64,000 nt of DNA, from IMG/VR virus record IMGVR_UViG_3300026382_000001; one strand, given 5' to 3'. The number at the start of each line of letters is the position of its first letter. The stretch's first letter is position 1. The position numbers and the translations under genes were made by a program. The DNA comes from a virus (taxonomy: Duplodnaviria; Heunggongvirae; Uroviricota; Caudoviricetes). Of the stretch, positions 490 to 56,170 are shown one piece after another. The notes beneath the pieces were generated by a model. That model did not search any database, was not told where the DNA came from, and saw only the letters and a list, made by a program, of their open reading frames with translations.

Positions 490-603
490 TATCTATAGAT
501 AACTATCAATGGTATAACCATGTATAGTTATCTGTATAGATAACTATATTACTATCAGTACCACGCACTATTAATAGATAACTATTAATAGTTATCTATT
601 AAT
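490..603. repeat. palindromic intergenic repeat cluster A
   Basis: ATAGATAACTAT/ATAGTTATCTAT units and TACCACGCACTAT linker. Confidence 0.85.
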
Positions 604-614
604 TTTCCAAACTT

Positions 615-1844
615 TTAAATGCTTTTACAATTAAGGAATTTAATATAACTTAGAATACTAGTAATCATAATCTTACTATAACGATATTCATTTTGAGTAC
701 TAATATGTTTAGCATCTTCATTTGGGGCATGTAATACATTAATAGCAATACTAGTATTAAATTTTTTAAGTTTATCGAAGTACTCGTCTTTTCTAGAACT
801 AGTAATTCTATTAGCTAAGACTTCCATATTCATATTACATAATTCTTCTTCTGATCTAAGTTTAAGACCATTTAAAAGCAATTCAATATAATATTTTAAA
901 TCTTCTTTATTATCATCATCGTCTAAGTAATTATCAATTTTTTGAATAACTTGATTACTTAAAAAGAATTTTTTATAAAGTGCATCTTTAATAGGACTTT
1001 TCTCAATTACTCTAGTTTTTAATAAACCGTTTTTTATAATTTTATCAGAAAGTCTTTCTATAATATTATTAAAGTGTTCTTTCTTTTCAATCATTTCACC
1101 TGAGTTTTCATAAGAAGTACTATGTAATTCATGAACTGATTCCGATTTACCAGATTCAACAGCTTTGTAATAATTAGTAGCAAGGTTTTTAAATAGTTGG
1201 TTATAACGACTTCTAATAGTAGTAATAACTCTCTTTAAACCAGCGTAATGATGAACCGGATCATTAGCAATTTCTTTAGGATAATTGTTTTCTAGAGCAG
1301 GTAAAGTAACTTTCATAATATAATTTAATGGGCTACCAGCGCTTTTAAAGGAGTGGTTTCCCTGTAATTCATAGTTCATTACATATTGACTAATCTTAGG
1401 ATCACATATATTTGGAAAGAATCTAAGTTTGTAATAATTCCATATAAGAATACTCATAAGTAATAAAGCATATTGTCGAAGTTCCTCATCATTATTATCT
1501 AGGCCTATAAGATAAGCTACACAAAGAGTCATATAATAATCTTTAGTATATACAATCGAACCTTTTAAAGAAAATTGTTCCATCTCGTGTTTAAGTTCTC
1601 TTTCGTTAATACCATAAAGTTTAAATAAAAGATTTGGTAATTTTTTAGAAACTGGGAAATAATCACAAAATGAAGTATGTTGCATACTATCTTGCATTAC
1701 TTTATGACTAGCTAATTTTAAATAACCTTCTTTAAGTAATTGATAGGCATGCTTATCAGTTTTAAATTTATCTAAAAGTGCTACCATCGTAGGACTAAGT
1801 TTGGAACGATTAAGTGTCACTGGGCTTGATTTATAGTTTGACAT
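615..1844 (-). CDS. hypothetical protein (409 aa)
   Basis: Long ORF; ATG at 1844 follows an AAAAGG SD (track start at 1850 is TTG); no recognisable motif. Confidence 0.85.
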   Translation of the reverse strand: MSNYKSSPVTLNRSKLSPTMVALLDKFKTDKHAYQLLKEGYLKLASHKVMQDSMQHTSFCDYFPVSKKLPNLLFKLYGINERELKHEMEQFSLKGSIVYTKDYYMTLCVAYLIGLDNNDEELRQYALLLMSILIWNYYKLRFFPNICDPKISQYVMNYELQGNHSFKSAGSPLNYIMKVTLPALENNYPKEIANDPVHHYAGLKRVITTIRSRYNQLFKNLATNYYKAVESGKSESVHELHSTSYENSGEMIEKKEHFNNIIERLSDKIIKNGLLKTRVIEKSPIKDALYKKFFLSNQVIQKIDNYLDDDDNKEDLKYYIELLLNGLKLRSEEELCNMNMEVLANRITSSRKDEYFDKLKKFNTSIAINVLHAPNEDAKHISTQNEYRYSKIMITSILSYIKFLNCKSI

Positions 1845-1916
1845 ATTCAACCTTTTTGTTTTGATGTTATTTTATTTATAATATCTCTTTGTTTAATATA
1901 TCTATATAAGGTGAGT

Positions 1917-1928
1917 ATAGTTATCTAT
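1917..1928. repeat. single palindromic unit (reduced cluster B)
   Basis: atagttatctat lies between terminator and next gene. Confidence 0.45.
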
Positions 1929-1967
1929 TCATCTATATAGAAATTGTATAGATATACCTTTAAACTT

Positions 1968-2006
1968 CCACAGGAAATTATTGGAGAATTTCTTCTCCAA
2001 TAATTT
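1968..2006 (-). terminator. intrinsic terminator with TTTCCTGTG tail
   Basis: 14-bp stem with GAAA loop, after 2020-2673. Confidence 0.8.
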
Positions 2007-2019
2007 ATGTTATATTATA

Positions 2020-15608: not shown

Positions 15609-15617
15609 TATTTAGTT
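15609..15617 (-). promoter_or_regulatory. late-type promoter AACTAAATA
   Basis: Exact motif just upstream of 13448-15586; resembles T4-type late TATAAATA/CTAAATA. Confidence 0.6.
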
Positions 15618-15656: not shown

Positions 15657-15756
15657 TATCTATAGTTAACTATCTGTACACTCACTACAGATAGTTAACT
15701 ATTGATACCATCAACTAAAGAGACAAATGTATATAGATAACTATAGTTATCCTGTT
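15657..15756. repeat. palindromic intergenic repeat cluster C
   Basis: ATAGTTAACTAT x2; 15706-15745 is 38/40 identical to the reverse complement of 36334-36373. Confidence 0.9.
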
Positions 15757-15770: not shown

Positions 15771-15815
15771 AACGACAAGAATATACCTTAATAGAGAAAT
15801 TCTCTATTAAGGTAT
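15771..15815 (-). terminator. intrinsic terminator with TTCTTGTCG tail
   Basis: 15-bp stem, after 15822-16442. Confidence 0.8.
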
Positions 15816-17547: not shown

Positions 17548-19632
17548 TTAAATTATACCATTTCGAATATCTTTTATAAGTTTTGGATATTTATAATAAA
17601 ATTTAGATTTTGTTTTATTATTAATACTTAACATTGTCATATATTTTTCATTATTATTATTAATAGTGTTATTACTACCATTTGAGAAAATACTTGAAAA
17701 TTTAATATTCGCTAATACATTATTATCTCTAATAATATCGTTTGTTAATATCGATAATTTTCTATAATCTGAAATTTGTAAAGGTATATTTATATACAAA
17801 GTTCTTTGATATACAATTGGACTAATAATCATAGTCTTTAAAGTATCTCCATCTTTCATTAATATTTTGCTATCGTACCCGCTATAATAAGTAATATTTG
17901 TATCTGTTCCATCATATGTAAATTCTCCTATTACTGTATTATTATGTTGTATATATCCAAAAATATTTTCAGTTAATGATTGAGAATAATCGATTAACAT
18001 ATCTATTATAAAAGGATTTGATTTTAATTCAAAAGTACTTGGATAATCTGTTCCAATTGGATCGTAGTAATGTATAATTTCTGGAACATTTATACCATAA
18101 GTATAACTTCTGTTAATTATAGAACCATTTTTTAATTCCACCATTATATTAATAGTGTTGTATCCTGTTGTTACCGTTTCTCCTGGAAAATTACTTGGGG
18201 TAAAAGAAGGAGTTTCTGTAATATTAATTTTAGATTCGCTTCTACCAGCGTAAATATCTTCCGAATCGGTAAGATTATTATATAATGGATGATCTCCGTA
18301 ATTGGTTCTTAAGAATCCCACATTAACGGAAGTTCTATCATAATTACCAGTAAAGTAAGCTCCAAAATTAGTAATTAATTTATTAGCTGTACAAAAGAAA
18401 GCCCCCGATTTATATGGAAAATCACTTGCCTCGGTAGAGCTAGTATAATTACCACCATGATCGGTTATAATAAATATTCCATTACCAGCTTCTCTAAATA
18501 AAAGAAGATTTGTAACAGCATTATCAGTAATTCTAGGAGTGGTTAAATATTTTGAACTCATAAATAAAACACCACAATAATCATTTAGCTCAGTTAAAGA
18601 AGGATTTAATAAACCATCGCTATAACTAGAACTCGTTTTATAAGTTAAAGTATATCCCATAATTTTAGCAACCCCAGCGAAACTAGTTCTAAAATCACTT
18701 GTTCCAGTTTCATTAATATTATAACTTTCCCCAGTGTTTGCATCACCAAGTACCAAAATATTTTTATTGCCTTGTGATACTTTATCGGTATTTGATATAA
18801 AATCCATAGCATTTGCTAAGTACCTAAAGGAAGCGTTTAAATCGGAAAAAACTTTCCAAGAGGTATTATATCGATTATTATAAAATTTTGGGAAACCTCC
18901 ATCAAACAATACATTTCCTTTACCATCTTGAACGGTTGCTATAAAAGGATTAGCTGGACTTAAATTATCGTAAGCGATGTATTTAGCTAAAGTTGGTGTT
19001 TCATTAACAGCTGATAAAACATTAATTACATCAGTAGAAAAATCAAAATATACATCTTGTTTCGTTGGGTAAATACCAGGAGGAACCGTAGGATTTAAAT
19101 AATCATTAATTGTTACTATTTTGGTAGTACTTTTAATACTATACGGAAGTGTTCCAATATTTATATATTTCTTACTATAATCACTTGAAATTATTTTAAT
19201 TTTGTCTATGTTGGTTTTAGATGTTATTTTAATACTTAAATTTTTAAAATCATTGATATTATCCATAACTAACCCATCGGTACAACAAGTATCCCATCTA
19301 AAGGTTCCTGTACAAACTCCAGTACTTGAATTAAAACTTGCTTCACCTTGATCATCCTGTACTACTAAAGAGGAATTCTTTGGTAAACCACTGATAGTAA
19401 AAGTAATATCTCCAGTCGTATTATCTTTGTATTGACTAGCAATTGCATGAATAGAAATTTTACCAGTACTTAAATCTTTATAAAAATATAAAGTAAGGCA
19501 TCTGGTTTCCTGCCACACTGGAGCGGCAGATGCTTCAAAAGTGGTATTATAACCATAATATGTTTTTGCATCTACTGTTCCGGTAAAGGATAAGGCTTCT
19601 TTGCCGTCTATATAATATTTTTGTATTTCCAT
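17548..19632 (-). CDS. virion structural/fibre-associated protein
   Basis: 694 aa beta-rich ORF (DGGFPKFYN motif) within the fibre cluster. Confidence 0.55.
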   Translation of the reverse strand: MEIQKYYIDGKEALSFTGTVDAKTYYGYNTTFEASAAPVWQETRCLTLYFYKDLSTGKISIHAIASQYKDNTTGDITFTISGLPKNSSLVVQDDQGEASFNSSTGVCTGTFRWDTCCTDGLVMDNINDFKNLSIKITSKTNIDKIKIISSDYSKKYINIGTLPYSIKSTTKIVTINDYLNPTVPPGIYPTKQDVYFDFSTDVINVLSAVNETPTLAKYIAYDNLSPANPFIATVQDGKGNVLFDGGFPKFYNNRYNTSWKVFSDLNASFRYLANAMDFISNTDKVSQGNKNILVLGDANTGESYNINETGTSDFRTSFAGVAKIMGYTLTYKTSSSYSDGLLNPSLTELNDYCGVLFMSSKYLTTPRITDNAVTNLLLFREAGNGIFIITDHGGNYTSSTEASDFPYKSGAFFCTANKLITNFGAYFTGNYDRTSVNVGFLRTNYGDHPLYNNLTDSEDIYAGRSESKINITETPSFTPSNFPGETVTTGYNTINIMVELKNGSIINRSYTYGINVPEIIHYYDPIGTDYPSTFELKSNPFIIDMLIDYSQSLTENIFGYIQHNNTVIGEFTYDGTDTNITYYSGYDSKILMKDGDTLKTMIISPIVYQRTLYINIPLQISDYRKLSILTNDIIRDNNVLANIKFSSIFSNGSNNTINNNNEKYMTMLSINNKTKSKFYYKYPKLIKDIRNGII

Positions 19633-21295: not shown

Positions 21296-21304
21296 TATTT
21301 AGTT
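21296..21304 (-). promoter_or_regulatory. late-type promoter AACTAAATA
   Basis: Upstream of 21012-21272. Confidence 0.6.
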
Positions 21305-21326
21305 CGAAAAGGATATTTAAACTTTA

Positions 21327-21582
21327 AATAACTATTCATAGTGTCAACTAACCTACTATAGCCAGTTATTTCAAAAAGACAAAAAATTTTAAAACCTAAA
21401 ATTTAAGAAATAGTTAAATTTTCAATCCTTTATAACACCGGAAAATAGGGGACTTGGTTTTTGATTTTAAGTTTATTTTAAAATCTGTTAGCTAGAGATT
21501 TTAAAAACAAACAACTATTAATAGTTAACTATTGATACCACGCACTATGAATAGTTAACTAAGTATCGTATGTTAGTTATTT
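21327..21582. repeat. palindromic intergenic repeat cluster D
   Basis: atagttaactattgataccacgcactatgaatagttaact; outer inverted repeat 21330-21344/21543-21557. Confidence 0.85.
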
Positions 21583-21596: not shown

Positions 21597-21633
21597 GACA
21601 GGAAAATACTTCTGGGATATCCCAGAAGTATTT
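21597..21633 (-). terminator. intrinsic terminator with TTTCCTGTC tail
   Basis: 13-bp stem, after 21657-23819. Confidence 0.85.
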
Positions 21634-24356: not shown

Positions 24357-27300
24357 TTATTTAAGTCTTAAATAAGTACAATAAGCTGTACTATTATTTA
24401 AATTATTATCATTTAGGAATTCAATACGTTTATCCATTTGGTTAACTTTATCGTTAACTATTATCGTTTCGCTTCCAATATCAATATTTAAATCTATAAT
24501 ATCACCAACTGGAGCATTACCTAACGTTATAAAGTTAATAGATTTATCAGAGTCCCAATGAACTACACATTTATCTTTTTCAATTGTAAATGATAAAGTA
24601 CTAGTACTAGCAATTCCGTTTGGATCATTAACAGCTGTAAGATACGCCGCTTTAAAATCTTCCGCGGTTTCACCATTAAGTTTATAAGTATCTTGAGCTT
24701 TAGCGTTTATACCTAAAAATCTCTCATCTGATTCAGTTTTAGTATATCTATCTTTTTCCGCTTGTATCGCTCTTTGAACTTCTTCATTTAATAAATTAAC
24801 GGTAGTATTTATTTTAGTATCCAAATCACCTTCTGCAGATCTTGCTGTAAGAGATTCAGTCGCAATTTTAGAATCTAGTACTTCCTCTTCAGTGGTACTT
24901 CTTTGAATTTCCGTATCTAAATCATTTCTGAGTGAATCTAAATTTCGTGTAGTATTTGTAACGAAAGCTCCAAAAGCTTTGTCATTTACTATATCAACAT
25001 TATTAATTAAATCAACTATTTCTTTAAAAGAATCTGCGTCGGCTGTACTAAGATTTAATATATCACTAATACGTTTTCTTTCGACTTCTAATGAATTTTC
25101 TAATGAATTTTCTTTAAATGTAGCTCGGGATACTTCATTATTTATAGCATCCATTAAAGCATTATCCTTTTGGATACTTCTTAAAGTTTCATTATTTAAT
25201 CTTAGATTGATATCATCATGTTCTGCTTGATTACTAGAAATTAAATTATTTAATGCTTCTAATATTTCATTTTCTTTTATACTAGCTCTAGTAATTTCAT
25301 TATTTAGATTAGTATTTGAATCAGCTTCTATTTCATCTTCTCTAAGAATTGCTCTCGAAGTTTCATTTTCTAAATTAATATTAGTATTATCTATTCTTTC
25401 ACCGAGATTGGTTTCATTAATTCTTGCTGATTGTTCTTCCGCTTTTATACGAGCATTTAAATCATCAGATAATTGATTTTCTGCCGTTTTAGCTCTTGAA
25501 GTTTCGTCATTGATAGCTAATAATGTTTTAGCTTCTAATACAGAAATACTAGTATTAATGTTATTAACACTGTCTGTAAATTTAGTATCTAAAGTAGTTT
25601 CAGCTGATTTTGCTCTTGAAGTTTCGTTATTTATTTTTAAAAGTAAATCTTGTTCAACCGAAACTGCTCGTTGAATTTCATTATTTATCTTAGCATCTAA
25701 TAAAATATCTCTATCATTAGAACCTTGGTTATTATTATCAATCTGTTCTTGAAGATCTGCTTCAACTTGTTTAGCTCTAACTATTTCATTATATGTTACT
25801 TCTAAATTCGATTCTTCTTTATCGGTTGCTCTTTGAATTTCATCATCTATTTTAGTATTAAGATTATCCAAATTGGTATTAGTTTCCGATGCAAAGTTAG
25901 CAAAAGCTTGATCATTATCAGTATCAATACTATTAATTAAATCAACAATTTCTTTAAAAGAATCTAAATCAGATGAACTAAGTTTAAGTATATCATCTAT
26001 TCTAGCACGTTGTGTATCAACTCTAGCATTCAAATAATTTAATATACGTTTTTCTTCTTTATCCGCTCTAAGAATTTCTTCTGTAAGATTTTGAGCATTT
26101 ATTTTTTCAGATTCTAAAGCTCTAGCAGTTTCATCTTCTAATAATTCGATAATATCTTTTTCGGCTTTTAAAGCTCTAGTATTTTCAGCAATAATTTTAT
26201 TATTTAATCCACTTTCCGCGGTACTTGCTCTAAGTGTTTCTGTACTAATTTTTCCATCTAGAATCTTAATTTTATTAACGGTTTTAGTATTATTTGTATC
26301 TATTTGATCTTGGAGATCTTGCTCAGAATCAGTCGCTCTTTGAATTTCATCATTTAACTTATCAGTTAAAGTATTTTCAGCATCTTGAGCTCTAAAAATT
26401 TCATCGTTTAAGTTATTACTTGTATTTAATTCGGCTGCTTTAGCTCTATCAGATTCTAAACCAATTTTAGCATTAAGATTACTTTCTATTAAATCTTCAT
26501 TTGTAATAGCTCTATTGGTTTCTTCTGTTAAAGAATTAATTATTTCATTTTCCGAAACAACTGCTCTATCAATTTCATTATTTAAACTATCAGTAATATT
26601 TTTAGAAAATGTAGCTAATGCTTCGTCATTTTCTGTATCAATACTATTAATTAAATTAACGATTTCTTTAAAAGAATCTAAATCTGTCGTACTTAATTCC
26701 ATAATATCATTAATGCGTTCTTCTTGAGTTTTTAAATCTTCGTTACTAGCAAAATAAGTACTATCTTTACCATCCAATAAATCTGCATTTACCGCTGTAG
26801 CATTAATTCCTAAAAATCTATTATCCGAAATATTTTTATTATAATAACTTTTTTCATGTAAGTGGCTATCATCTAGTATTTGAACTTCTATATTTTTATC
26901 AGTACTTCCATCTAATGAAATTTCACCTTGAGCATCTCCACTAAGACTTAACTTAATTTCTTTAGCGAGACTAGTAGACGTTCTAGCATTTCCAGTTGTA
27001 TTAGCGTTAATTAAATCTGGTAATCTATCTTTATTAAGAGTACCTTGTTTAATTTTAGAAGCGTCTATGTTTGATAAATTAAAACCATCCCCATAAAGAG
27101 CTTCCGCGGTAACGTTTCTAGTAACCATTAAATTATTATAAACATAAGCATTTTTATTTTTATCAGTTTTAAATGACCAAGTTCCATCAGCATTAACGAA
27201 ACCAATTTCATCTTCTAGGGTCCATCTAACATATTCTCTAGTTACCCAAGATTCATCTGCTGTTTCAACTGATCCAAGAACTCCACCATCTTTTAAAGAT

Positions 27301-27494: not shown

Positions 27495-28577
27495 TTATAA
27501 TTCAGCTTCATAAGCTGTTTTGAAATCCTCGAAATTTATAGAATTTGCTAATGATTTTCCAAAAAATGAAACAGTTTCATTTATCATATCAAATTCCATT
27601 ATTTTTCCATTATATTTCCAATCATTATGTTCCTTGTCTAACCATTGGTAACTTTTTAATGTAAGAAAGTCGTTTTCATCCGATGAAAATTCATAAAATG
27701 TACCATCGTCCTTTAAATCATTTATATCAATATAAGTTGGTATAATTGATTTAAAATAAGTTGTTATGTTATAAAAATTTTTCTCTGATGTTCCAGCATT
27801 TTCATTTAAAACGAAATTATCTATATCGTGTCCTGCTAATGTTCCAGCATCATATGAAGTATCTCCAGGAATCCCTGGATCACCTTTATCACCTTTATCG
27901 CCTTTATCGCCTTTTGGTCCCACCGGACCCTCTATACCTTGAAGACCTTCTGGGCCTTGTGGACCTTCATCACCAACATCTCCTTTAATACCTTGAGGAC
28001 CTTGAGCACCTTCTGGGCCAGTAGGTCCTTGAGGACCTTGATCACCATCTTGACCAGGCAAACCTTGATCACCTTTTGGACCAATAGGACCTTGAGCACC
28101 ATCTTGACCATCTTGACCATCTTTACCTGCTGGACCAATAGGACCTTGAGGACCAGTTGGGCCCTGATCTCCTTTAGGACCATCGCTTCCACGTGGTCCT
28201 AAATTTCCCTGATCTCCTTTTGGACCAATAGGACCTTTTGGACCAATAGAACCTTGAGGACCAACTGGTCCCATATCACCCCGATCACCCTTTGGTCCAG
28301 TTAATCCAGTTTGACCTGGTTGACCTTGTGGACCGGTATCTCCTTTATCCCCTTTATCCCCTTTCGGTCCAATAAATTTGGAAAGATCGTCAAAAATAGC
28401 TATTAATTTAGCTAATGATGGATAAGTATTTTTAGTTGTACTAGTATCTTCATTTATAAAAACTATATCAACATCCGAAGTTTTATCGTCTGTAGTAAAG
28501 CGTTTAAGAAATTCTAGAATATTCCAACCATTCGATAATAATATTCTTACATTATTATTTAATTCTTGTAAATTCAT
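27495..28577 (-). CDS. collagen-like (Gly-X-Y) fibre protein
   Basis: Long [12 protein letters not shown] triplet run. Confidence 0.85.
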
Positions 28578-34815: not shown

Positions 34816-36201
34816 TTATCCTTTTAAAAAATTACTAGAAAGTATTGCTAAATCATTATCGGATTTAGTATTTTGAAATGATAAATTATCAATATTTGCA
34901 TAATCCACAACGGTACTTCCATAATTTATTTTATTTTCTGTATTTACTTCGTTTAAATTATTAAGGAATGTATTCTTATCATTATCTTTTTTAAAAAATA
35001 TTCCCATAAGACTTTTATCAACTGGAGTTGCTACAGAAGCAGCGTCAGCTACCGAACCATCTGTTAATACGGTTCCAACGACGGATGACGCTATATTATC
35101 GAAACTCATAAATGTTCCAAAGGCAGCGAAAGCTAATTGAAGTGAAGTACTAGTAGTAGTTAATGATGTACCAAAACTTGGAGCAACACTGGTAGCAACA
35201 CCAAGATTATTTACTATAGCACCATCATTTGCTATAGTACTAATAGCATTTGCTTGAAAGGTACTTGTTTCGGTACTCATGGTATTTTCTCTAGATTCTA
35301 AAGCACTATATGTATGTTTAATGGCTAAATTTATTTGATCATTAATTAACGATTGAGTTCTATAAAATACTTTCGATTCCAAATTTAAAGATAATCCAGC
35401 TTTAATATAAGTACTTAACCAACCTTCTATATGAATAACACTTGAATTTAAAGCAGCCTTTTGGGTACCAGTTAAATTTAAAATAGTTCCTCTTATATGA
35501 AGTTGTCCAAGACTCTGAATATTTGTACTTTCCCCACGGATATCTAATTTTTTAGTATCTATTGAAAGAAAATCTTCTCCTTTCATACTAATACCTTTGG
35601 ATGTCATATTAAAAAAAGTAGTTGAATCGGTTCCATTATTTACAGAAAACCCAGCACTATTAAAAATTAAAGTTCTTTCCCCAAAAGATACGACAAAACC
35701 ATCTTCTGATAATTCCATAAAAGATGTTACGTTGTTGCCTATATCATTCGTTTGCATAATAATACTACTTTTATCCATAAAAAAATCAGTTCTATTTGAG
35801 TTATTTATATGGAATCTGCTTTTAGAATTATCGAAATAAACTCTAGAACCATTTGGGGTTTCAGCTAATAAATAATAATCATCGGTTGGTTGTCCCGGAG
35901 GTACGGCTACGGAATCATAATGTATTCTATCTATATAACCAGATTCTATTTTATTAGTACTAAATTTAATTATTACTTTAGTATCTGGTATTAATGGAAA
36001 ATATGAACCACTGTATTGTGTTAGGTCAGTTCCTTTTCTTTTCACAGCCATATATTTATTTAATTTATTTTGTACTGGAAGTAATTCATCTTTTTTTAAA
36101 AGAGTTGGTATCCAAACATAATAATTTGTTGGATACGTTTCGTCATAATAATCTGCGATAATACCAATGAATTCTTTATCTGTTAAGGTATTTGATGCCA
36201 T
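34816..36201 (-). CDS. central spike protein (gp5/VgrG-like)
   Basis: N-terminal OB-fold-like YVWIPTL..YFPLIPDTKVIIKF followed by beta-helix-type repeats. Confidence 0.75.
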   Translation of the reverse strand: MASNTLTDKEFIGIIADYYDETYPTNYYVWIPTLLKKDELLPVQNKLNKYMAVKRKGTDLTQYSGSYFPLIPDTKVIIKFSTNKIESGYIDRIHYDSVAVPPGQPTDDYYLLAETPNGSRVYFDNSKSRFHINNSNRTDFFMDKSSIIMQTNDIGNNVTSFMELSEDGFVVSFGERTLIFNSAGFSVNNGTDSTTFFNMTSKGISMKGEDFLSIDTKKLDIRGESTNIQSLGQLHIRGTILNLTGTQKAALNSSVIHIEGWLSTYIKAGLSLNLESKVFYRTQSLINDQINLAIKHTYSALESRENTMSTETSTFQANAISTIANDGAIVNNLGVATSVAPSFGTSLTTTSTSLQLAFAAFGTFMSFDNIASSVVGTVLTDGSVADAASVATPVDKSLMGIFFKKDNDKNTFLNNLNEVNTENKINYGSTVVDYANIDNLSFQNTKSDNDLAILSSNFLKG

Positions 36202-36235: not shown

Positions 36236-36244
36236 TATTTAGTT
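36236..36244 (-). promoter_or_regulatory. late-type promoter AACTAAATA
   Basis: Upstream of the spike gene. Confidence 0.6.
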
Positions 36245-36279: not shown

Positions 36280-36428
36280 AACAGGATAACTATCAATAGT
36301 TAACTATCAATGGTGCGTGGTATAGATAGTAAGTATAGTTATCTATATACGTTTGTCTCTTTAGTTGATAGTACTGATAGTTAACTATTGATGGTAGGTG
36401 TACTAATAGTTAACTATTAATAGTTATT
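36280..36428. repeat. palindromic intergenic repeat cluster E
   Basis: Three ATAGTTAACTAT units with GGTGCGTGGTA-type linkers. Confidence 0.9.
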
Positions 36429-36450
36429 CGATAATTTATAGAAGATTTAT

Positions 36451-36489
36451 CGACAGGAAATTACTTCTGGAATTAACCAGAAGTAATTT
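36451..36489 (-). terminator. intrinsic terminator with TTTCCTGTCG tail
   Basis: 13-bp stem, after the sheath/tube operon. Confidence 0.85.
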
Positions 36490-45067: not shown

Positions 45068-45126
45068 AAATTTCCTTTACTTTTATTTTAATTCTTTGTT
45101 AATCTTATATAAACTGTCCTATATTT

Positions 45127-45165
45127 AACGACAGGAAAAAAATATCCCCGAGGGGATATTTTTTT
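45127..45165 (-). terminator. intrinsic terminator with TTTCCTGTCG tail
   Basis: ATATCCC/GGGATAT stem, after the gp51-like gene. Confidence 0.85.
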
Positions 45166-45186
45166 TGTTGTTTAAACTTTAATTAA

Positions 45187-45363
45187 TTATCTACCTTGAG
45201 ATTGTTTTAATTGTTGTTTCGTTTTACGATCAAATTCTTTTTCACACAGTACATAAATTTCCTCAATCATAAATAATGGCATATTCATTAATTCATCATA
45301 TGAAAAAGGTATATCCGTAGTACTACTAAAAATAATATAATTTTCTAAATTCTTTGACCACAT
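45187..45363 (-). CDS. baseplate hub assembly catalyst (T4 gp51-like), 58 aa, absent from ORF track
   Basis: My translation: MWSKNLENYIIFSSTTDIPFSYDELMNMPLFMIEEIYVLCEKEFDRKTKQQLKQSQGR; follows the gp26-like gene as in T4. Confidence 0.7.
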   Translation of the reverse strand: MWSKNLENYIIFSSTTDIPFSYDELMNMPLFMIEEIYVLCEKEFDRKTKQQLKQSQGR

Positions 45364-45373
45364 TTCCCTTCTA

Positions 45374-46294
45374 TCATACCTCTGCGAGGAGTAGAAGGGA
45401 TTTACGAAAAAATGAGGTTTCGATATTTACAGGAATCTTATTTAACTTATGGCATCTAGTACATTTACATTCCTGATAAAGATTTGGCATGTATTTATCA
45501 AAAATAGTTAAATCTATTTCTTGTAATACCATATCTTTAATTTTTAATGGAAGGTTTTGTAAAAATGGAAGAATTTCTTTTTCAAGATCTTCTAGAACTT
45601 CATCATCCCCGTTTTCATCAGGAACCACAATACTAGCAGTTAAAAATGAAATAGTTTCAATAATACCAAAGATACCATTACTTTCTTCCATATTCTGTTC
45701 TATCTTTCCTTCGAGAAAATCCATTAATTTTAATCTGTCTTCTTCGGTTGGAAGCTTTAAGTTAAATATTAAACCACCACCAAGAAGTGTTTGAGTATTA
45801 ATATATTCAAATGGACTTTGTTTTCCTTTTGTAAGATCCCAAGGAGCAGGTACGCTATCATCATGCCATAATTCTTCCGTATTTATATCTACTGGAAATT
45901 TTTCTTCACAATGTTCACATACGTGACCAACTGTCCCAAGAGTACTAAAAGTACTTAATGACAATGCGTAAATAATTAATGATTTATCTTGAGGGGTCAA
46001 ATACTTAAGAAAATCTTCATATGATTTAATTTTACTTTTTGGTCCAAATTCACATTTCTCATAAAGTAATTTATTAAAATTTTTAATAAATGTATTCAAT
46101 GTTACATTTTGAGTTTTTAAAGCTTGTTCCTCATGTCCAGTTACAGGACTAACAGAAACTTTTTCTTTAAGTATTACCAAATCAGTTTCTTGTTTATTAA
46201 TATTATTGACTGCATTAATTTTATTTAACGCTTTCATATAATTTGGTAAATTATCTTGTTCTTCTTTTGTTAAAATGACTTCTTCTTTTGCCAT
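45374..46294 (-). CDS. baseplate hub assembly chaperone (T4 gp26-like)
   Basis: Two Zn-finger-like motifs, CEHC and CTRCHKLNKIPV; ends SFFR. Confidence 0.75.
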   Translation of the reverse strand: MAKEEVILTKEEQDNLPNYMKALNKINAVNNINKQETDLVILKEKVSVSPVTGHEEQALKTQNVTLNTFIKNFNKLLYEKCEFGPKSKIKSYEDFLKYLTPQDKSLIIYALSLSTFSTLGTVGHVCEHCEEKFPVDINTEELWHDDSVPAPWDLTKGKQSPFEYINTQTLLGGGLIFNLKLPTEEDRLKLMDFLEGKIEQNMEESNGIFGIIETISFLTASIVVPDENGDDEVLEDLEKEILPFLQNLPLKIKDMVLQEIDLTIFDKYMPNLYQECKCTRCHKLNKIPVNIETSFFRKSLLLLAEV

Positions 46295-46323
46295 AAATAT
46301 TCCTTTAAATTTATTTTAGTAAT

Positions 46324-46659
46324 TTAATACTTTGGAGGATAATCGTAATTATTTCCAACTTCTTTATTATTCTTTTTCATTTGATTATGTATTACATGAC
46401 CAATTCCAGCACCAGCGGCACCTATTACACCACCACCAATAATACTAGCGGGAAGTCCATCACCATCATTAAGCATGTTAGTTAGCATAGCTCCACCACC
46501 CAATAGTCCTCCAGTGAGCATACCACCGTTAGAAAGTATTTTATCTCTAGTAGTATTAAGATCGGTGTTTTTAACAGTATCTGTAACTTTTCCAATAGTT
46601 TTACCAACCATATCAAATACTTCAGTTAATATAACTTCTTTATTTATTTTAAGATTCAA
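46324..46659 (-). CDS. small glycine-zipper protein with shared N-terminal peptide (internal head protein?)
   Basis: TTG start after GGAGG; NLKINKEVILTE; GGMLTGGLLGGG and GGGVIGAAGAGIG helices. Confidence 0.6.
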   Translation of the reverse strand: MNLKINKEVILTEVFDMVGKTIGKVTDTVKNTDLNTTRDKILSNGGMLTGGLLGGGAMLTNMLNDGDGLPASIIGGGVIGAAGAGIGHVIHNQMKKNNKEVGNNYDYPPKY

Positions 46660-46700
46660 AACAATCCTCCAAAATTTTTATTCATATGGATTGGTTATCT

Positions 46701-46967
46701 TTACTTTTTAAGGTCTTTTGTAAATACTCCAATATGCATTTTATACATAGCTCCAATACCTAACACTAATCCAGTATTAACCATAATCATTCCTAATAAA
46801 TCTCCATGTAAATATGAATTAGTACTCCAACATAAATCAGCCAATACATAAGTCCAAGAACTATAATAAATCTTTCCTAAGAACATAAATAAAGCACCAA
46901 GTATTAAAAGTAACCCACCAATAGTAATTATATTACAAGTAATATAATTTAAAAATAATTCTATCAT
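46701..46967 (-). CDS. small membrane protein (PnuC-like fragment?)
   Basis: Three hydrophobic segments; overlaps the stop of the upstream P-loop gene. Confidence 0.5.
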   Translation of the reverse strand: MIELFLNYITCNIITIGGLLLILGALFMFLGKIYYSSWTYVLADLCWSTNSYLHGDLLGMIMVNTGLVLGIGAMYKMHIGVFTKDLKK

Positions 46968-47551
46968 TTTAAAAACTTTTTTACTTTTTTAAAACAGTAT
47001 TTATTAATACTATTTGAATAGGTGCTATTTATTTTTTTATAAGATATTTTATTATTCTTTAGTAAATTTTTAATCATAAAATTTATATTGGATGATTCTA
47101 ATTTAGTTTCATTTCTACCAACCGGATTATAAGATATATTCGAATTATCTAAAAATATATTTATATTTTTAAATATAAAATCTTTATTTAATTCTGGTAA
47201 AAATTTAGAAAATACTATATCTTTTAAAGATTTATCAAAAATACCAGTATTGAATTCATAAAAAGCTAATCCAATTATAATTGGACTATCCATTATTAAA
47301 ATTCCCTTTTCCCCAATACTATCCCAGTAATCAATCACTTTAAATATTTCTTGGTATTGAGAAGCACTTATAAAAAATTGATTATTAATAGCTCTTGATC
47401 TAGAATAAGTTAAATCTTTTGCTACTTCGGGAGCTAGTTCACAATTATAACCATTCTTTTTAAAATAATTAAATAAGCCAGCGGCTACCGTACTTTTTCC
47501 AGAACCTGGTCCAGCAAATAAATTAATTATTATATGTTTTTTTAATTCCAA
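46964..47551 (-). CDS. P-loop nucleotide kinase/ATPase (AAA_28/NadR-like)
   Basis: IINLFAGPGSGKST Walker A; PEVAKDL; IMDSP. Confidence 0.75.
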   Translation of the reverse strand: MELKKHIIINLFAGPGSGKSTVAAGLFNYFKKNGYNCELAPEVAKDLTYSRSRAINNQFFISASQYQEIFKVIDYWDSIGEKGILIMDSPIIIGLAFYEFNTGIFDKSLKDIVFSKFLPELNKDFIFKNINIFLDNSNISYNPVGRNETKLESSNINFMIKNLLKNNKISYKKINSTYSNSINKYCFKKVKKFLK

Positions 47552-47579
47552 AATTTCTCCTTATTTAGGATTAATTAGA

Positions 47580-47588
47580 ATATCTATA
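47580..47588 (-). promoter_or_regulatory. second promoter class TATAGATAT
   Basis: 29 bp upstream of the P-loop kinase start. Confidence 0.45.
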
Positions 47589-47605
47589 TAGCTATTAAGA
47601 TAATA

Positions 47606-47693
47606 TGAGTTAACTATTCATAGTATGTGGTACTGATAGTAATATAGTTATCTATCAACTAATGGTACCAATAGTTAACTATTAATAGTTATT
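47606..47693. repeat. palindromic intergenic repeat cluster F
   Basis: 47620-47655 is 34/36 identical to the reverse complement of 536-571. Confidence 0.9.
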
Positions 47694-47694
47694 C

Positions 47695-47773
47695 GCTAAT
47701 TAATAATATAGTATTTATTAACTACTAATATCATTATAAAAACGAGTTAATAAATACTATATTATTAATTAGC
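47695..47773. repeat. perfect 29-bp inverted repeat with 21-nt loop
   Basis: gctaattaataatatagtatttattaact / agttaataaatactatattattaattagc. Confidence 0.95.
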
Positions 47774-47800
47774 AGAATAGATTAAGATTATCCTAAAATT

Positions 47801-47862
47801 AACGACATGAGGTGGGATACTAAGAAAGTACTTAAAGAGTAAAAGTACTAAAATAGTATCCC
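47801..47862 (-). terminator. long hairpin with variant CTCATGTCG tail (end of tRNA transcript?)
   Basis: GGGATACTA/TAGTATCCC outer stem; inner AGTACT pair. Confidence 0.5.
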
Positions 47863-48015
47863 GAAAGAGTGTGAGTTTTTTCGCGCGAATTTAATCAAAG
47901 GTTAAAAATGTTATATGAGTCTATATTTATTTAAAGGAGGCGACTCAATTACAAACAAAACATCTAAAAGCATAAGACATTTAATGGATAAAGGAATAAC
48001 AGTTTTTAAAGAAAG

Positions 48016-48097
48016 GGGAAACATTTGGAGTTGCACCAAATTATTAAAGAAGTGAGAGAGTCTTCTTCAACGTCTTACTAATATAAACGATATTTCC
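48016..48097 (-). ncRNA. tRNA-like RNA with 9-bp anticodon arm
   Basis: GGAAATA/TGTTTCC acceptor, GTTT/AGAC D-stem, TTGAAGAAG/CTTCTTTAA long arm, TTTGG-TGCAACT-CCAAA T-arm. Confidence 0.6.
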
Positions 48098-48104
48098 ATA
48101 ATTT

Positions 48105-48265
48105 AACATGCCTACTCCCAAGAATTTTAATTTCCTCTAACTTCGTGCTTTATTTCTAAAGGCGTGTTATAGTAGGCTTCTTGGTTTCGTTGGTTTTTCC
48201 TCAGATACCCTACTGCGGTCTTACGGATTTTTAAGTCTCCCGAAGTTACATAAAAGTAAGACTAT
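48105..48265 (-). ncRNA. candidate structured ncRNA between tRNA-Ile and the tRNA-like element
   Basis: Three 7-bp complementary pairs, a GAAA-capped hairpin and cUUCGg; no credible ORF. Confidence 0.4.
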
Positions 48266-48288: not shown

Positions 48289-48365
48289 TGGTTGTCCTTA
48301 CTAGACTTGAACTAGTGACTCCATCCTTATCAGGGATGTACTCTAACCAACTGAGCTAAAGGACA
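48289..48365 (-). tRNA. tRNA-Ile (GAT)
   Basis: Full cloverleaf; CATCC-CTGATAA-GGATG; encoded CCA. Confidence 0.95.
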
Positions 48366-48374
48366 ATAATTAAT

Positions 48375-48450
48375 TGGTGCCGACAAGAAGATTTGAACTC
48401 CTGGCATCTTCATTACAAGTGAAGTGCTCTACCATCTGAGCTATGTCGGC
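48375..48450 (-). tRNA. tRNA-Thr (TGT)
   Basis: CTTCA-CTTGTAA-TGAAG; encoded CCA. Confidence 0.95.
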
Positions 48451-48462
48451 AAATGTTTATAA

Positions 48463-48537
48463 TGGTGACCTCACAGAGAATTGAACTCTGGTAACCAGAA
48501 TGAAAATCTGGGATCCTAACCACTAGACGATGAGGCC
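48463..48537 (-). tRNA. tRNA-Glu (TTC)
   Basis: CCAGA-TTTTCAT-TCTGG; encoded CCA. Confidence 0.95.
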
Positions 48538-48557
48538 ATTTTATAATTTTGAAAATG

Positions 48558-48632
48558 TGGCTCCGGATACTGGATTCGAACCAGTGACCAAGTGATTAAC
48601 AGTCACCTACTCTACCGCTGAGCTAATCCGGA
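48558..48632 (-). tRNA. tRNA-Asn (GTT)
   Basis: Loop CTGTTAA; G73; encoded CCA. Confidence 0.95.
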
Positions 48633-48708
48633 ATGTTTGAATCAAAGAATTTCTCCTATGATTATATTAAGGATATCTATACTTTTATTAATAGATATTT
48701 CTTAAATA

Positions 48709-48783
48709 TGGAAGAGGTAGAGGGATTCGAACCCCCGAATATCTGCCCCAAAAACAGATGCCTTACCGCTTGGCGATACCTCT
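48709..48783 (-). tRNA. tRNA-Gln (TTG)
   Basis: TCTGT-TTTTGGG-GCAGA; Gln-type D-arm GCCAAGCGGTAAGGC; encoded CCA. Confidence 0.9.
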
Positions 48784-48801
48784 AAATTATATGGTGTTAT
48801 A

Positions 48802-48877
48802 TGGTGGGCTGAGTAGAATTCGAATCTACGACCACTCCGTTATGAGCGGAGGACTCTAACCACTGAGTTACCAGCCC
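48802..48877 (-). tRNA. tRNA with CAT anticodon (elongator Met or Ile2)
   Basis: CTCCG-CTCATAA-CGGAG; paired 1-72, so not an initiator; encoded CCA. Confidence 0.9.
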
Positions 48878-50716: not shown

Positions 50717-52555
50717 CTATTTAGAATTATTTTTTAACACATTAATATCATAAATATAAACTGATCCAGCATCAACCGTTCCAGTATCTTCTACATATGC
50801 TCCAACAACTAAAGTATCATTTGAAATAGATACATTGAATCCAAAATAATCGATCCCTTGACCATCAATAGCTTGAATTTTTATTTCAGATGCCATGATA
50901 CTATCACTATCAAATTTCGTTAAATCATACATATAAACCGACCCAGCATCCGTCCCATTAGTATCTTGCCAAGGCGACGAAACAACTAAAGTATCATTTA
51001 AAATAGCTACATTGTATCCAAACTGGTCCCGGATATTTATATCGCTCGAGATAATTTTTATTTCGGATGCCTTGATACTATCAATATCAAAGTTCGTTAA
51101 ATCATAAATATAAGCTGATCCGGCAAGTGTCCCATTAGTACTGTTTGCATGTGCTCCAACAACTAAAGTATCATTTGAAATAGATACATTGTATCCAAAA
51201 TAACCACGTGTTTGCACCACACTAGCATGAATTTTTATTTCAGATGCTTGGATACTATCAATATCAAAGTCCGTTAAATCATAAATATAAACTGCTCCAG
51301 CATCAGTAGTCCCAGCATCTTCTGCATATGCTCCAACAACTAAAGTATCATTTGAAATAGATACATTGAATCCAAAATAATCACCAGATTGTGCATCACT
51401 AGATCGAATTTTTATTTCAGATGCTTTGATACTATCAATATCAAAGTTCGTTAAATCATAAATATAAACTGCTCCAGCAACATCTTCTCCATATGCTCCA
51501 ACAACTAAAGTATCATTTGAAATAGTTACATTGTATCCAAAATAGTCATTAGCTCGAATATCATTAGATTGAATTTTTATTTCAGATGCTTTGATACTAT
51601 CAATATCAAAGTTCGTTAAATCATAAATATAAACTGATCCAGCAGACGATCCAGTAGTATCTTCTCCATATGCTCCAACAACTAAAGTATTATTTGAAAT
51701 AGATACAGTGTATCCAAAATAGTCCGACTTTTGAGCATTACTAGCTTGAATTTTTATTTCTAAATCTTTTTCAATATCATAAATATAAACTGATCCAGCA
51801 TCGGTTTCAGTGGTATCTTCATTAGGTGCCCCAACAACAATATATTTATCGGTATTACATACAGAACGCCCAAAATAGTCTTTACTTTGAGCATCACTAG
51901 CTTGAAGTTTAATACTATTATAAAATTGAGTTTTTTTAAGAATAAAATTTTCATTTTCTTTATCAGTACTGAATAAATTAATAATATTATTATAGTTATT
52001 AAATTTTAAAGCAGATAGACTATCACCAACTTCAGGATCTCTAAAATTTAAATAAATTTCTTTATTATCGATTGGGATAATTGAAAATGGTTTAGTAATA
52101 TCTAGTACCATATTTCCAGATGTACCAATAGTACTAAAAACTCCATTAATAACATAATTCAACTCTGGAGCATCGGTACGAGCATTAATAGTAATATCTA
52201 AATCTCCAGATTTAATAATACCTGAATCTGTTACATCATCAACGTTATAATTATTTACGAATGATTCATTCGTAATGCTAAAAGATATTTCCGAAGTTTC
52301 CGTCATAGTTATTTCTGGAATTATTAAAGTATTAAGGTATCTTAATGAACCATTTGCCATTTTACCATTAATTTTCTCATTTATGTTAACCGCTTCTGTA
52401 TTATTAATACTAACAATTACAGTAATTCTTTGATTTACAAAATCTGGTAAATAAATATCCTTTAATCCTTCCCCAATAAAAGAATCTGGAAAAGTAGTAC
52501 TAAAAGGATTATTCACCATAAAAGCATTGGCTTGTATATTTTTATTTAAATTCAT
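50717..52555 (-). CDS. FG-GAP repeat seven-bladed beta-propeller protein
   Basis: Seven repeats of the type DYFGxxVxISNDTLVVGAxxED..AGxVYIYD. Confidence 0.85.
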   Translation of the reverse strand: MNLNKNIQANAFMVNNPFSTTFPDSFIGEGLKDIYLPDFVNQRITVIVSINNTEAVNINEKINGKMANGSLRYLNTLIIPEITMTETSEISFSITNESFVNNYNVDDVTDSGIIKSGDLDITINARTDAPELNYVINGVFSTIGTSGNMVLDITKPFSIIPIDNKEIYLNFRDPEVGDSLSALKFNNYNNIINLFSTDKENENFILKKTQFYNSIKLQASDAQSKDYFGRSVCNTDKYIVVGAPNEDTTETDAGSVYIYDIEKDLEIKIQASNAQKSDYFGYTVSISNNTLVVGAYGEDTTGSSAGSVYIYDLTNFDIDSIKASEIKIQSNDIRANDYFGYNVTISNDTLVVGAYGEDVAGAVYIYDLTNFDIDSIKASEIKIRSSDAQSGDYFGFNVSISNDTLVVGAYAEDAGTTDAGAVYIYDLTDFDIDSIQASEIKIHASVVQTRGYFGYNVSISNDTLVVGAHANSTNGTLAGSAYIYDLTNFDIDSIKASEIKIISSDINIRDQFGYNVAILNDTLVVSSPWQDTNGTDAGSVYMYDLTKFDSDSIMASEIKIQAIDGQGIDYFGFNVSISNDTLVVGAYVEDTGTVDAGSVYIYDINVLKNNSK

Positions 52556-52565
52556 TATTTATTCC

Positions 52566-53789: not shown

Positions 53790-53798
53790 TATAGATAT
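53790..53798 (+). promoter_or_regulatory. second promoter class TATAGATAT
   Basis: On the plus strand, upstream of the sole plus-strand gene. Confidence 0.45.
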
Positions 53799-53870: not shown

Positions 53871-55103
53871 ATGACAAATGCGAGAATAATGGAGTTATTA
53901 AATAACAACAGTAGAACTGGAATATCAGAGGTATTAAACTATCTTCGAAAAATTAGTATTACTGGTTTAAATATTAATGAGAATGGGTTAAATGAAATAT
54001 TAGAAAGAGTAAACGAAATTGATGAACAACAAAGAAAATATTTAATGGACGTAGATTTATTTAAATTATTTACTAGTAATCGAAATCGTATTACACCAAC
54101 TTTATCAAGTACTTGGAAAATAGATTATCGAAACACCGATGTATATTCTGGTTATATGGTTTTAGAAAATGATGAAGGTATTAGAATTCAACGAGTACCT
54201 TCAAGTAATTTTTTTAAAACTATGAAAAAAGGTTTACTTAATGAAAATGGTGAGCCGGAAGAACTTAAGATAATTGGTGGTAATTTAGAAGGGAGATTTA
54301 TAGTTAATCATCATAGACAACTTTTTTCAGAAGGTTTTTATAATCTTTGGCGAAAAATACATTTTCCAGAAACAGAAGAGGAAGATAACAACGAAGTTAA
54401 TAAAGATAATATAGAAGTTGGAAAATATTACTTGGCTAATAAAGATTTAAATGGGATATATTTGGAGAAGTTCTTAGGTGCCAAATACATTGTTAAATAT
54501 AAAATAATAGCTGGAGAATTGGTTCCTCATATTAGTAAACAAAAATTGGCTTTACAAATATATTTAGGTAATTATACTTTAAGTCATAATATGAATGTTA
54601 ACACATGTGGAAAAATTAAAATTTTAAGTCCTTATAAAAAATTAAAATATTATGAGGAATTTAATAATCTTCCTTTTTTAAGATCGATGTCCGAAGAAGA
54701 GGAACGAAAAAAAATATCATCCCATTATAATTATCAAGATAACATAATTGATATTTTAGATGAGTTACCGGCTTCTAAAAAGGAAATTGGTTTTAAATTA
54801 GTCCCATCAGATTACGATGATATTATTAACGTTATTAAGATACAGGGTAAGTATGTGTTAATTAACAATATTCGTGTACCTAGAGGTAATACTCATATTC
54901 AGCGATGTCGTCCAAAAGGAATTATTCGTCCAGATATAAATACTATTGGAAAAATACATATCGATCGAGAACAAGTAGGTAATAATTTTGATAGAGAGGA
55001 ATTTTTAATAGCTAATGATCTATCCGATGCGTATAAAATACAAGTTACTCCATTTATAAATAATGGTATACAATTAAATATTATAGACGATATTATTGGT
55101 TAA
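53871..55103 (+). CDS. hypothetical protein (only credible plus-strand gene)
   Basis: 410 aa; AAGGAG SD; convergent terminator downstream. Confidence 0.8.
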   Translation: MTNARIMELLNNNSRTGISEVLNYLRKISITGLNINENGLNEILERVNEIDEQQRKYLMDVDLFKLFTSNRNRITPTLSSTWKIDYRNTDVYSGYMVLENDEGIRIQRVPSSNFFKTMKKGLLNENGEPEELKIIGGNLEGRFIVNHHRQLFSEGFYNLWRKIHFPETEEEDNNEVNKDNIEVGKYYLANKDLNGIYLEKFLGAKYIVKYKIIAGELVPHISKQKLALQIYLGNYTLSHNMNVNTCGKIKILSPYKKLKYYEEFNNLPFLRSMSEEEERKKISSHYNYQDNIIDILDELPASKKEIGFKLVPSDYDDIINVIKIQGKYVLINNIRVPRGNTHIQRCRPKGIIRPDINTIGKIHIDREQVGNNFDREEFLIANDLSDAYKIQVTPFINNGIQLNIIDDIIG

Positions 55104-55115
55104 ATAGTTTTAAAG

Positions 55116-55147
55116 GACAGGAAAAGAAAGGCTAACGCCTTTCTTTT
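55116..55147. terminator. bidirectional terminator with TTTCCTGTC tail on the minus side
   Basis: 11-bp stem between convergent genes. Confidence 0.85.
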
Positions 55148-56053
55148 TTATTCGAAATTAAAATAGATTTTTGAAGATTTTAAAAAATAGTTTAATTTTA
55201 TTCGTTTAAAATTTTTTGGTTTTATTTTTTTATTATGTAAATAATATTCTTCTTTTTCTTCGTTAATAATAGCTGGCCCATCTTCTCTATGTAATTCCCC
55301 ATTTTTATAATATTTTTGTTGATAATTTTCTACCCATGCTGGACCATCTTCTCTATGCAGTAATCCATCTTTATAATATCTTTCTTCAAAAGAATGACTA
55401 ATTTTACATAGTTTTTTATACGCTGGTTGAAATTCATCAGATATTACTTTAGAATCTAATTCAGAATATTTATTAAAATGACATTCGAGAATGTCCAAAT
55501 GATTTATTAAAATAAAATTATAATTTTCTTCTTCTCTAATTATATATTCTTGAAATTTATTTATAATAATTTCTAGATTTATATCACTTTCTTTAAGTGA
55601 AGTATTGGATAAAAAATGATAAAATATATCAGAATGTTCGTTAAAATCATCTAAGAATTTTTCTTTTGGGAATTTCTTATCTTCTGGTTTTAAAAAATAT
55701 CTTAATCTTAATTGCAATAATGATTCATAAGAGGTATTATTATTTAAAGAAGTACTATAAAGTATTTTAAATCTTTTAATAGTATTTAAGTATTTATATA
55801 ATTTATTTTTGGTATCTTTAAATAAAAAATATGAAATATTTATATCATAACCTATATGTATTTTATTACTATCATAATATGGAACCATTTTTATTATTCC
55901 ATTAATTTTATTATCTTTATATAAAAATAATTTTTTATTTTTATTTTTATTAAATTTATTATAAAAGAATACCTTCATATTAAGGTATTGTTTATTTAAC
56001 CAATTATCAAACTTTTCTAATTGTTTTGAAAATTCACATTTTATAATTGCCAT
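55148..56053 (-). CDS. hypothetical protein with LHREDGPA repeats
   Basis: YYKDGLLHREDGPA and YYKNGELHREDGPA MORN-like repeats common in phages. Confidence 0.75.
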   Translation of the reverse strand: MAIIKCEFSKQLEKFDNWLNKQYLNMKVFFYNKFNKNKNKKLFLYKDNKINGIIKMVPYYDSNKIHIGYDINISYFLFKDTKNKLYKYLNTIKRFKILYSTSLNNNTSYESLLQLRLRYFLKPEDKKFPKEKFLDDFNEHSDIFYHFLSNTSLKESDINLEIIINKFQEYIIREEENYNFILINHLDILECHFNKYSELDSKVISDEFQPAYKKLCKISHSFEERYYKDGLLHREDGPAWVENYQQKYYKNGELHREDGPAIINEEKEEYYLHNKKIKPKNFKRIKLNYFLKSSKIYFNFE

Positions 56054-56083
56054 AGTATACCTTTAATTATTTTTATAATTAAG

Positions 56084-56092
56084 ATATCTATA
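56084..56092 (-). promoter_or_regulatory. second promoter class TATAGATAT
   Basis: 31 bp upstream of 55148-56053; also at 1898-1906 and 48673-48681. Confidence 0.45.
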
Positions 56093-56103
56093 ATCGCTTA
56101 GAA

Positions 56104-56170
56104 CAAGATAACTATTAATAGTTAACTATTCATAGTGTGTGTACTGATAGTTAACTATTAATAGTTATTC
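56104..56170. repeat. palindromic intergenic repeat cluster G
   Basis: gataactattaatagttaactattcatagtgtgtgtactgatagttaactattaatagttatt. Confidence 0.9.

Follow-up and report, generated by a model that had tools for sequence, protein, structure and literature searches.

How transcription units are controlled and kept apart in giant phages that have RNA polymerases of their own is poorly understood (PMC7598289). The question is raised by the IMG/VR virus record IMGVR_UViG_3300026382_000001 (Caudoviricetes), of which a stretch of 64,000 nucleotides was analyzed, here called the window. Between its genes stand clusters of a short palindrome, ATAGTTAACTAT. What are these arrays, and what might they do at the junctions of transcription units? 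An initial annotation of the same DNA had listed seven such clusters, and all seven were present. The virus is considered a giant phage with its own multisubunit polymerase, since an RNA polymerase beta-like protein is encoded on a related contig.

Five related IMG/VR records were compared with the window; counts given for six records comprise the window and these five. G002 (81 kb) is syntenic with the window at approximately 80% DNA identity, and G005 is likewise syntenic at approximately 73%. G001 and G003 originate from the same sample as G002, and G001, G002 and G003 together represent about 98% of one genome (CheckV). Two further relatives, G006 and G007, have capsids that are 82% and 62% identical, respectively; G007 is 97% complete.

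Composition and placement of the arrays

With up to one mismatch, ATAGTTAACTAT was found 22 times in the window, compared with 0.84 +/- 1.0 expected occurrences, and none of 100 dinucleotide shuffles reached this number. In the six records 73 of 86 matches were intergenic although only about 8% of the bases are, which corresponds to a 66-fold enrichment. The motif is thus more common between genes than inside genes or in shuffled DNA, as the initial annotation had assumed, and it was conserved in the relatives. Four isolated one-mismatch matches within genes (11163, 24450, 31276 and 50140) look like chance.

The initial annotation regarded the 12-bp palindrome as the repeat unit. The 12-mer is indeed enriched, but the underlying repeat is a pentamer (ATAGT/ACTAT) which alternates in orientation at a step of exactly 7 bp. 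Neighbours at this distance were arranged head-to-head in 52 and tail-to-tail in 65 cases, with none in the Markov control. The head-to-head spacer was TA in 48 of 52 cases, whereas the tail-to-tail spacer was variable. Runs consisted of two to six cores, joined to each other by a few reusable linkers. Since such runs start with either orientation of the pentamer, the 12-mer represents one view of a heptad array.

A second module comprised one unit on either side of a 17-bp linker (unit-N17-unit); the step was 29 bp in 11 of 17 cases, and the linker faced one way or the other relative to transcription at 9 to 7. The third module was a long cassette of about 235 bp, in which unit-N17-unit modules form inverted arms of 41 bp or more around a conserved AT-rich core. 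Apart from the window copy, four copies were found in G001 and one in G005, where the arms are exact reverse complements of each other. The core is highly conserved and includes an invariant stretch of 30 nt; it gave no RNA structure signal (folding z-scores of -1.4 and +0.2, alignment without useful covariation).

Not all seven loci were equal. The locus at 1917 is weak, with one unit accompanied by promoter-like boxes, and the position 21327 turned out to be the degenerate end of the long cassette, the intact units of which lie some 200 bp further on (Table 1). Both linkers named initially were recovered in the two orientations. GTGCGTGGTA stands at 36313 and its reverse complement at 559 and 21537; TTTGTCTCTTTAGTTGAT stands at 36352 and is reverse-complemented at 15708. 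Entire clusters were found in both orientations as well: positions 15657-15749 are the reverse complement of 36330-36422, with 83% identity over 93 nt. The blocks of 36-40 bp with about 95% identity between distant loci could not be reproduced; the best blocks were 31-36 bp long and 92-94% identical. Unit spacing followed steps of 14 and 27-30 bp and linkers were reused, so the arrays are without the regularly spaced identical repeats and unique spacers of a CRISPR array, a distinction that had been drawn correctly. The potential to form DNA hairpins or cruciforms was strong in all arrays (z-scores from -3.4 to -8.1, the latter in array A), with perfect stems of 17-24 bp predicted. A reading of the unit as a restriction site was ruled out, as the contained GTTAAC was just mildly depleted in coding DNA (65 versus approximately 87 expected).

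The words enriched between genes fell into four groups: TTCCTGTCG(TTAA) directly after GC-rich hairpins, the palindrome together with its linkers, the ribosome-binding site AAAGGAAA, and TATAGATA(T). On the coding strand the usual order within a junction cassette was a hairpin with an TTTCCTGTCG tail, the array, a promoter-like box (TATAGATAT or AACTAAATA) and the ribosome-binding site. The GC-rich hairpins with their directional tail are located at operon ends and are putative terminators. The tail TTTCCTGTCG(TTAA) was found 31 times in sense and twice in antisense orientation, stands where the U-tract would be after terminator-like hairpins and may be a termination signal of the phage polymerase. 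A simple terminator scan demands a T-run and therefore misses this type of tail.

The TAGATAT box was directional too (51 versus 16) and preceded the ATG by a median of 54 nt, whereas the palindrome units were non-directional (63 to 64). In the coding-strand comparison the late-type box ACTAAATA was located 30-34 nt ahead of the ATG in structural genes (30-42 nt for the boxes in Table 1). A scan for the sigma-70 consensus remained at chance level (154 sites versus 151 +/- 14 in shuffles), and the conserved boxes were TATAGATAT and AACTAAATA instead. The last half-site of the array provides an RTTATC element some 16 nt upstream of TATAGATAT. According to a review (PMC7598289), early promoters in such giant phages are conserved, AT-rich words roughly 10 nt long that lie near -10; the putative promoter word TATAGATAT fits this description.

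Most clusters had been placed between a terminator and the next promoter. This holds for five of the seven window loci; however, divergent and convergent junctions are occupied too. The long cassette fills all three major divergent junctions of G001 in an orientation independent of the flanking genes, and at the convergent junction of G003 and G004 an array is located between two terminators. The genes downstream of arrays belong to various classes, namely structural, RNA polymerase beta-like, RecJ-like, SNF2 helicase, dUTPase, ClpB-like and homing-endonuclease-like genes.

Recombination and turnover at the arrays

Comparison with the relatives showed that the arrays serve as substrates for recombination, with flipped loops, inverted blocks, homogenised paralogues, and arrays or neighbouring gene modules that are gained, lost or replaced. 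The 17-bp linker of array G matched its G002 orthologue at 4 of 17 positions directly and at 15 of 17 as the reverse complement, while both flanking palindrome units were identical. In the non-unit columns of the composite 93-nt block, the G002 paralogues shared 89-95% identity, pairs between the window and G002 84% regardless of whether they were orthologous, and the two window paralogues 72%. Paralogues in G002 are thus more similar than orthologues, and copies therefore exchange sequence between loci.

Presence and absence of whole arrays could be followed at orthologous junctions. Where the window and G002 carry array E in a stretch of about 190 bp, G005 has no array and the terminator tail directly adjoins the late box; comparison of this empty site with the two filled sites revealed no target-site duplication flanking array E. 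At the G002 junction corresponding to array D the array is missing and 6.6 kb of other genes are found, while the window has four genes there which are not in G002. The capsid gene of the window is 94% identical in DNA to that of G002, and the adjacent terminator and array align closely save for the flipped linker. The downstream gene is unrelated, which places the breakpoint at the promoter box. Altogether, breakpoints relative to the relatives were located at or within arrays C, D and G, and several other indels lay away from arrays. The proposal that the clusters serve as recombination points for module shuffling is supported by these synteny breakpoints.

Two observations concern the capsid module itself. 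The major head protein (window 56282-57835) shares 99% amino acid identity among the window, G002 and G005, compared with 35-90% for the neighbouring proteins, which suggests that the capsid module, with junction cassettes as its borders, has recently been exchanged or undergone a sweep. Furthermore, in G002 the capsid terminator hairpin and its tail are present in two nearly identical copies, and between them lies an additional gene for 98 amino acids (26295-26896, L020), which resembles a cassette brought in when terminators recombined.

The array family was found in about 15 IMG/VR contigs from seven metagenomes. As a check for host origin, unit-NN-unit was searched in 185,579 species genomes with no match, and the motif was not found in 50 kb of Salicola phage SCTP-2, the closest cultured phage. 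The literal 12-mer had no occurrence in the literature searched. The sister lineage G006 keeps a terminator tail (TTCCTGTCGTAG) and carries a different palindromic element of 47 nt, based on ATAGCT/AGCTAT, at its gene junctions. In G007 the tail is changed to TTTTGTCGTTAGAAA, another promoter-like word is used and no dominant intergenic palindrome is present. From the different palindrome of G006 and the absence of the family from G007 we conclude that the arrays are a clade-specific addition with fast turnover.

Candidate roles of the arrays

In orthologous arrays, 200 of 204 unit positions (98%) were identical; elsewhere in these spacers the figure was 659 of 899 (73%; p = 3e-19). Among 26 one-mismatch variants, 19 deviated at position 5/8 and five at position 1/12, that is, at two symmetric positions. 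Furthermore, array positions were kept across genomes with 73-80% DNA identity. Our main argument for a sequence-specific protein is that the conservation is position-specific and that one spacer is invariant while the other is variable. Together with the symmetric mismatches, this lends indirect support to the earlier suggestion of iterated sites for a putative dimeric protein.

We would give about even chances to the interpretation that the arrays are binding sites for a putative sequence-specific DNA-binding protein of this phage clade, situated within modular junction cassettes, which would modulate or insulate the adjacent transcription units, the inverted repeats making them recombination hot spots at the same time. 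A dimer, or a cooperative chain of dimers, would coat each run. The bound protein would modulate promoter use, since the -35-like RTTATC element of the TATAGATAT promoters comes from the last half-site, and it may also insulate neighbouring transcription units, because arrays occupy convergent and divergent junctions as well and do so in either orientation.

The search for a binder gave one lead. In a Pfam sweep of 142 small open reading frames (ORFs) of the near-complete relative, an HU-family protein was the only classical DNA-binding protein. Its gene is followed within about 80 bp by a large array at five loci or contigs, of which at least three are from clearly distinct phages, with HU proteins 77-100% identical, and the array-free relative G007 has no homologue of it. 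This neighbourhood makes the HU-family protein a candidate lead for the binder. Six-frame searches yielded no match to RHH_1 (ribbon-helix-helix, PF01402) and none above cut-off to HTH_3. In the 195-aa P-loop protein encoded after array F the Walker A motif is ordinary, and its matches to AAA_28 and CbiA are weak. Neither ParA nor ParB was seen, which, along with the missing RHH_1 match, leaves the idea of a parS-like genome organisation unsupported. P0002, a protein with sub-threshold zinc-ribbon and helix-turn-helix matches, is a poor candidate because a homologue exists in G007.

Several points speak against the binding-site interpretation. Homogenisation between paralogous blocks could explain part of the unit conservation without selection. 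The sweep of small ORFs gave an HU-family protein only, and no binder emerged from it or from the RHH_1 and HTH_3 searches. Both the junction of G005 in which the terminator tail adjoins the late box and the absence of the family from G007 indicate that arrays are dispensable for basic expression. Finally, arrays between two convergent terminators do not fit well with a simple operator role.

Alternatively, the arrays might be selfish or neutral palindromic repeats, spread and homogenised by phage recombination and tolerated only at operon junctions, where nothing breaks. Much of the turnover described above is in line with this: arrays are present or absent at orthologous junctions and occur in either orientation, the long cassette has inverted arms of at least 41 bp, the G002 paralogues are more alike (89-95%) than orthologues (84%), G006 has three fully identical copies of its own palindromic element, and a 97%-complete relative is without the family. 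The units resemble the repetitive extragenic palindromic (REP) sequences and bacterial interspersed mosaic elements (BIMEs) of enterobacteria, which are short, clustered extragenic palindromes of alternating orientation with a small set of reusable linkers, and all these traits recur in the arrays. However, a cognate RAYT (Y1) transposase was not found, as Y1 transposase (PF01797) gave no match above cut-off in G001-G005. Serine recombinases were absent from the five records as well; other transposase families were not searched. The arrays also follow terminator hairpins instead of lying in 3' untranslated regions, and their carrier is a phage, not a bacterial chromosome. The long cassette shares terminal inverted repeats with miniature inverted-repeat transposable elements (MITEs), and together with presence and absence at junctions these repeats are what the idea of a non-autonomous mobile element retains; the empty site without target-site duplication and the lack of the two enzymes weaken it. 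Wholesale gene conversion, moreover, would not predict conserved units (98%) amid variable linkers and tail-to-tail spacers, nor does the selfish-repeat reading sit well with array positions retained between genomes of 73-80% DNA identity. We consider a selfish or neutral nature of the arrays unlikely.

A role as replication origins or orientation-independent enhancers, as in the homologous regions (hr) of baculoviruses, would chiefly concern the long cassette. Repeats lie beside an AT-rich region in the lambda origin, and baculovirus hr elements are repeated palindromes, bound by the viral dimeric protein IE-1. The arrays share with them dispersed clusters of an iterated imperfect palindrome, conserved linkers, independence of orientation and a location at recombination or rearrangement points. 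Nevertheless, there is no homology, the 7-bp register makes for a far shorter unit, and the present virus infects prokaryotes. The comparison is one of architecture. The highly conserved core with its 30-nt invariant stretch and no RNA structure signal, the cassettes at all three major divergent junctions of G001 irrespective of the orientation of flanking genes and the strong cruciform potential would be compatible with such a role. On the other hand, this support is purely architectural, about seven arrays per 64 kb are many for origins, an initiator gene was not identified, and promoters are required at divergent junctions anyway. An hr-like role of this kind therefore appears rather improbable. 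We regard it as similarly doubtful that the arrays extrude as cruciforms which are bound or stabilised by the clade-specific HU-family protein and act as orientation-independent enhancers, insulators or initiation sites, i.e. as a prokaryotic-virus counterpart of the baculovirus hr elements.

A function at the RNA level seems the most remote of these explanations. Arrays transcribed by read-through or as leaders would form long AU-rich hairpins at which RNA is processed in the manner of RNase III or stabilised, as at the R sites between T7 genes. The predicted perfect stems of 17-24 bp, the intergenic location within long co-directional gene trains and the flip of a hairpin loop between orthologues, which is typical of stem-loops, would suit this role. 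Yet most arrays are positioned downstream of terminator-like hairpins and upstream of promoter-like boxes, some lie between convergent terminators, the exact word is conserved and not pairing alone, and a covariation signal was not found.

A similar repeat geometry is known from plasmid pSM19035, whose omega repressor binds heptad arrays that act as operator and centromere. These contiguous 7-bp repeats, direct or inverted and of variable run length, lie upstream of promoters like the arrays described here; the core word differs, however, and here neither an RHH_1-family match nor a ParA partner was found. In their cassette character the arrays resemble the promoter-early stem-loops (PeSLs), composite terminator/promoter cassettes of T4-type phages (PMC2839356, PMC4122927). 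Both are small repeated intergenic cassettes with a stem-loop terminator and a promoter (both predicted in the present case), flank variable genes and serve as homology patches for the gain, loss and replacement of modules. In contrast, PeSLs carry early promoters of the sigma-70 type, while sigma-70-like matches are at chance here and other boxes are used. PeSLs are also directional and, as described, without an array of iterated palindromes (PMC2839356, PMC4122927), whereas the arrays described here run in either direction and are found at convergent and divergent junctions as well.

Irrespective of the function, the array element, the terminator tail and the two promoter-like boxes provide a readable operon map of the clade, and the arrays mark where such genomes break and rejoin. 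Contrasting the clade with a sister lineage whose palindrome is another one, and with a complete relative devoid of arrays, offers a practical route to the binder. If the arrays are enhancer-, insulator- or origin-like, they would represent a new regulatory principle for phages; otherwise they are a clean example of recombination-driven cassette evolution.

Features and genomic surroundings

Table 1. Positions of arrays, boxes and associated features (window coordinates unless another record is named)
Feature	Position	Strand	Remarks
Array A	490-603	none	Units at 495, 536, 574, 588 and degenerate unit at 523; directly upstream of zinc-ribbon homing-endonuclease-like gene 1-459 (minus); orthologous arrays in G003 and G004
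Weak locus B	1899-1958	none	Single unit 1917-1928 amid TATAGATA-type boxes; upstream of gene 615-1850; kept in G003 and G004
Array C	15657-15751	none	Composite 93-nt block upstream of 712-aa structural gene
Long cassette D	21325-21562	none	Unit-N17/18-unit arms, intact 21521-21562, degenerate 21327-21365; AT-rich core of ~180 bp
Array E	36280-36430	none	Four units, both linker types; holds 93-nt block oriented opposite to array C
Array F	47606-47694	none	Upstream of 195-aa P-loop protein gene, downstream of tRNA array; kept in G002 and G005
Array G	56104-56170	none	Unit-N17-unit module with 23-bp inverted arms; 17-bp linker 56130-56146
Terminator-like hairpin followed by TTTCCTGTCG tail	56220-56253	minus	Others at ~1968-2003, 15773-15815, 21597-21633, 36452-36488, 45130-45166, 55116-55147, 59921-59950
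Promoter-like box TATAGATAT	56084-56092	minus	Also 47580-47588 and 1898-1906 (minus), 53790-53798 (plus)
Late-type box ACTAAATA	15609-15616	minus	Also 21296-21303 and 36236-36243; 30-42 nt before structural-gene ATG
HU-family gene	G001 66102-66362 (L027:6102-6362)		Further copies in L004, L008, L010 and L018
47-nt element of G006	G006 18310-18356, 35000-35050, 61650-61696 (L056-L059)		100%-identical copies in both orientations

The window has a G+C content of 27%, and nearly all genes are carried on the minus strand. The majority of its proteins are without a Pfam family; PHROG matches included tail sheath, major head protein and virion structural proteins. The best cultured match of the window was Salicola phage SCTP-2, with phiKZ-like phages of Pseudomonas and Ralstonia next. 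The RNA polymerase beta-like gene, with Rpb2 domains 3 and 6, is located in G001 at 45097-48210 (L026:5097-8210). A long cassette and a late-type box precede it, and its product may be a subunit of a virion polymerase.

Tandem treble-clef zinc-ribbon modules (DUF4379, DUF723-like) characterise a multi-copy gene family that is represented in the window at 1-459, where the copy runs past the window end, and by paralogues in G001-G005. These genes probably encode homing endonucleases. A tie between the arrays and this family was considered and dropped, as an array was found upstream at two independent loci of about 10 paralogues.

Six tRNA genes (Ile, Thr, Glu, Asn, Gln and Met) are located on the minus strand at window positions 48289-48877. 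They were the only known RNA families in the window, and the long cassette had no family match. Next to array F, in the interval from the tRNA array to the following operon, lies a perfect 29-bp inverted repeat with a 21-nt spacer (window 47695-47773).

Further repeats were found within coding DNA. Tandem DNA repeats of 177 bp code for an FG-GAP repeat protein (window 50717-52555), and a gene for 360 amino acids contains a 9-bp-periodic DNA repeat with G+C-rich triplets (window 27856-28289) which, as predicted from the DNA, may encode a collagen-like stretch. The word AGTACT occurred 376 times in the coding DNA of the six records, compared with approximately 70 expected from dinucleotide composition, and was not enriched between genes.

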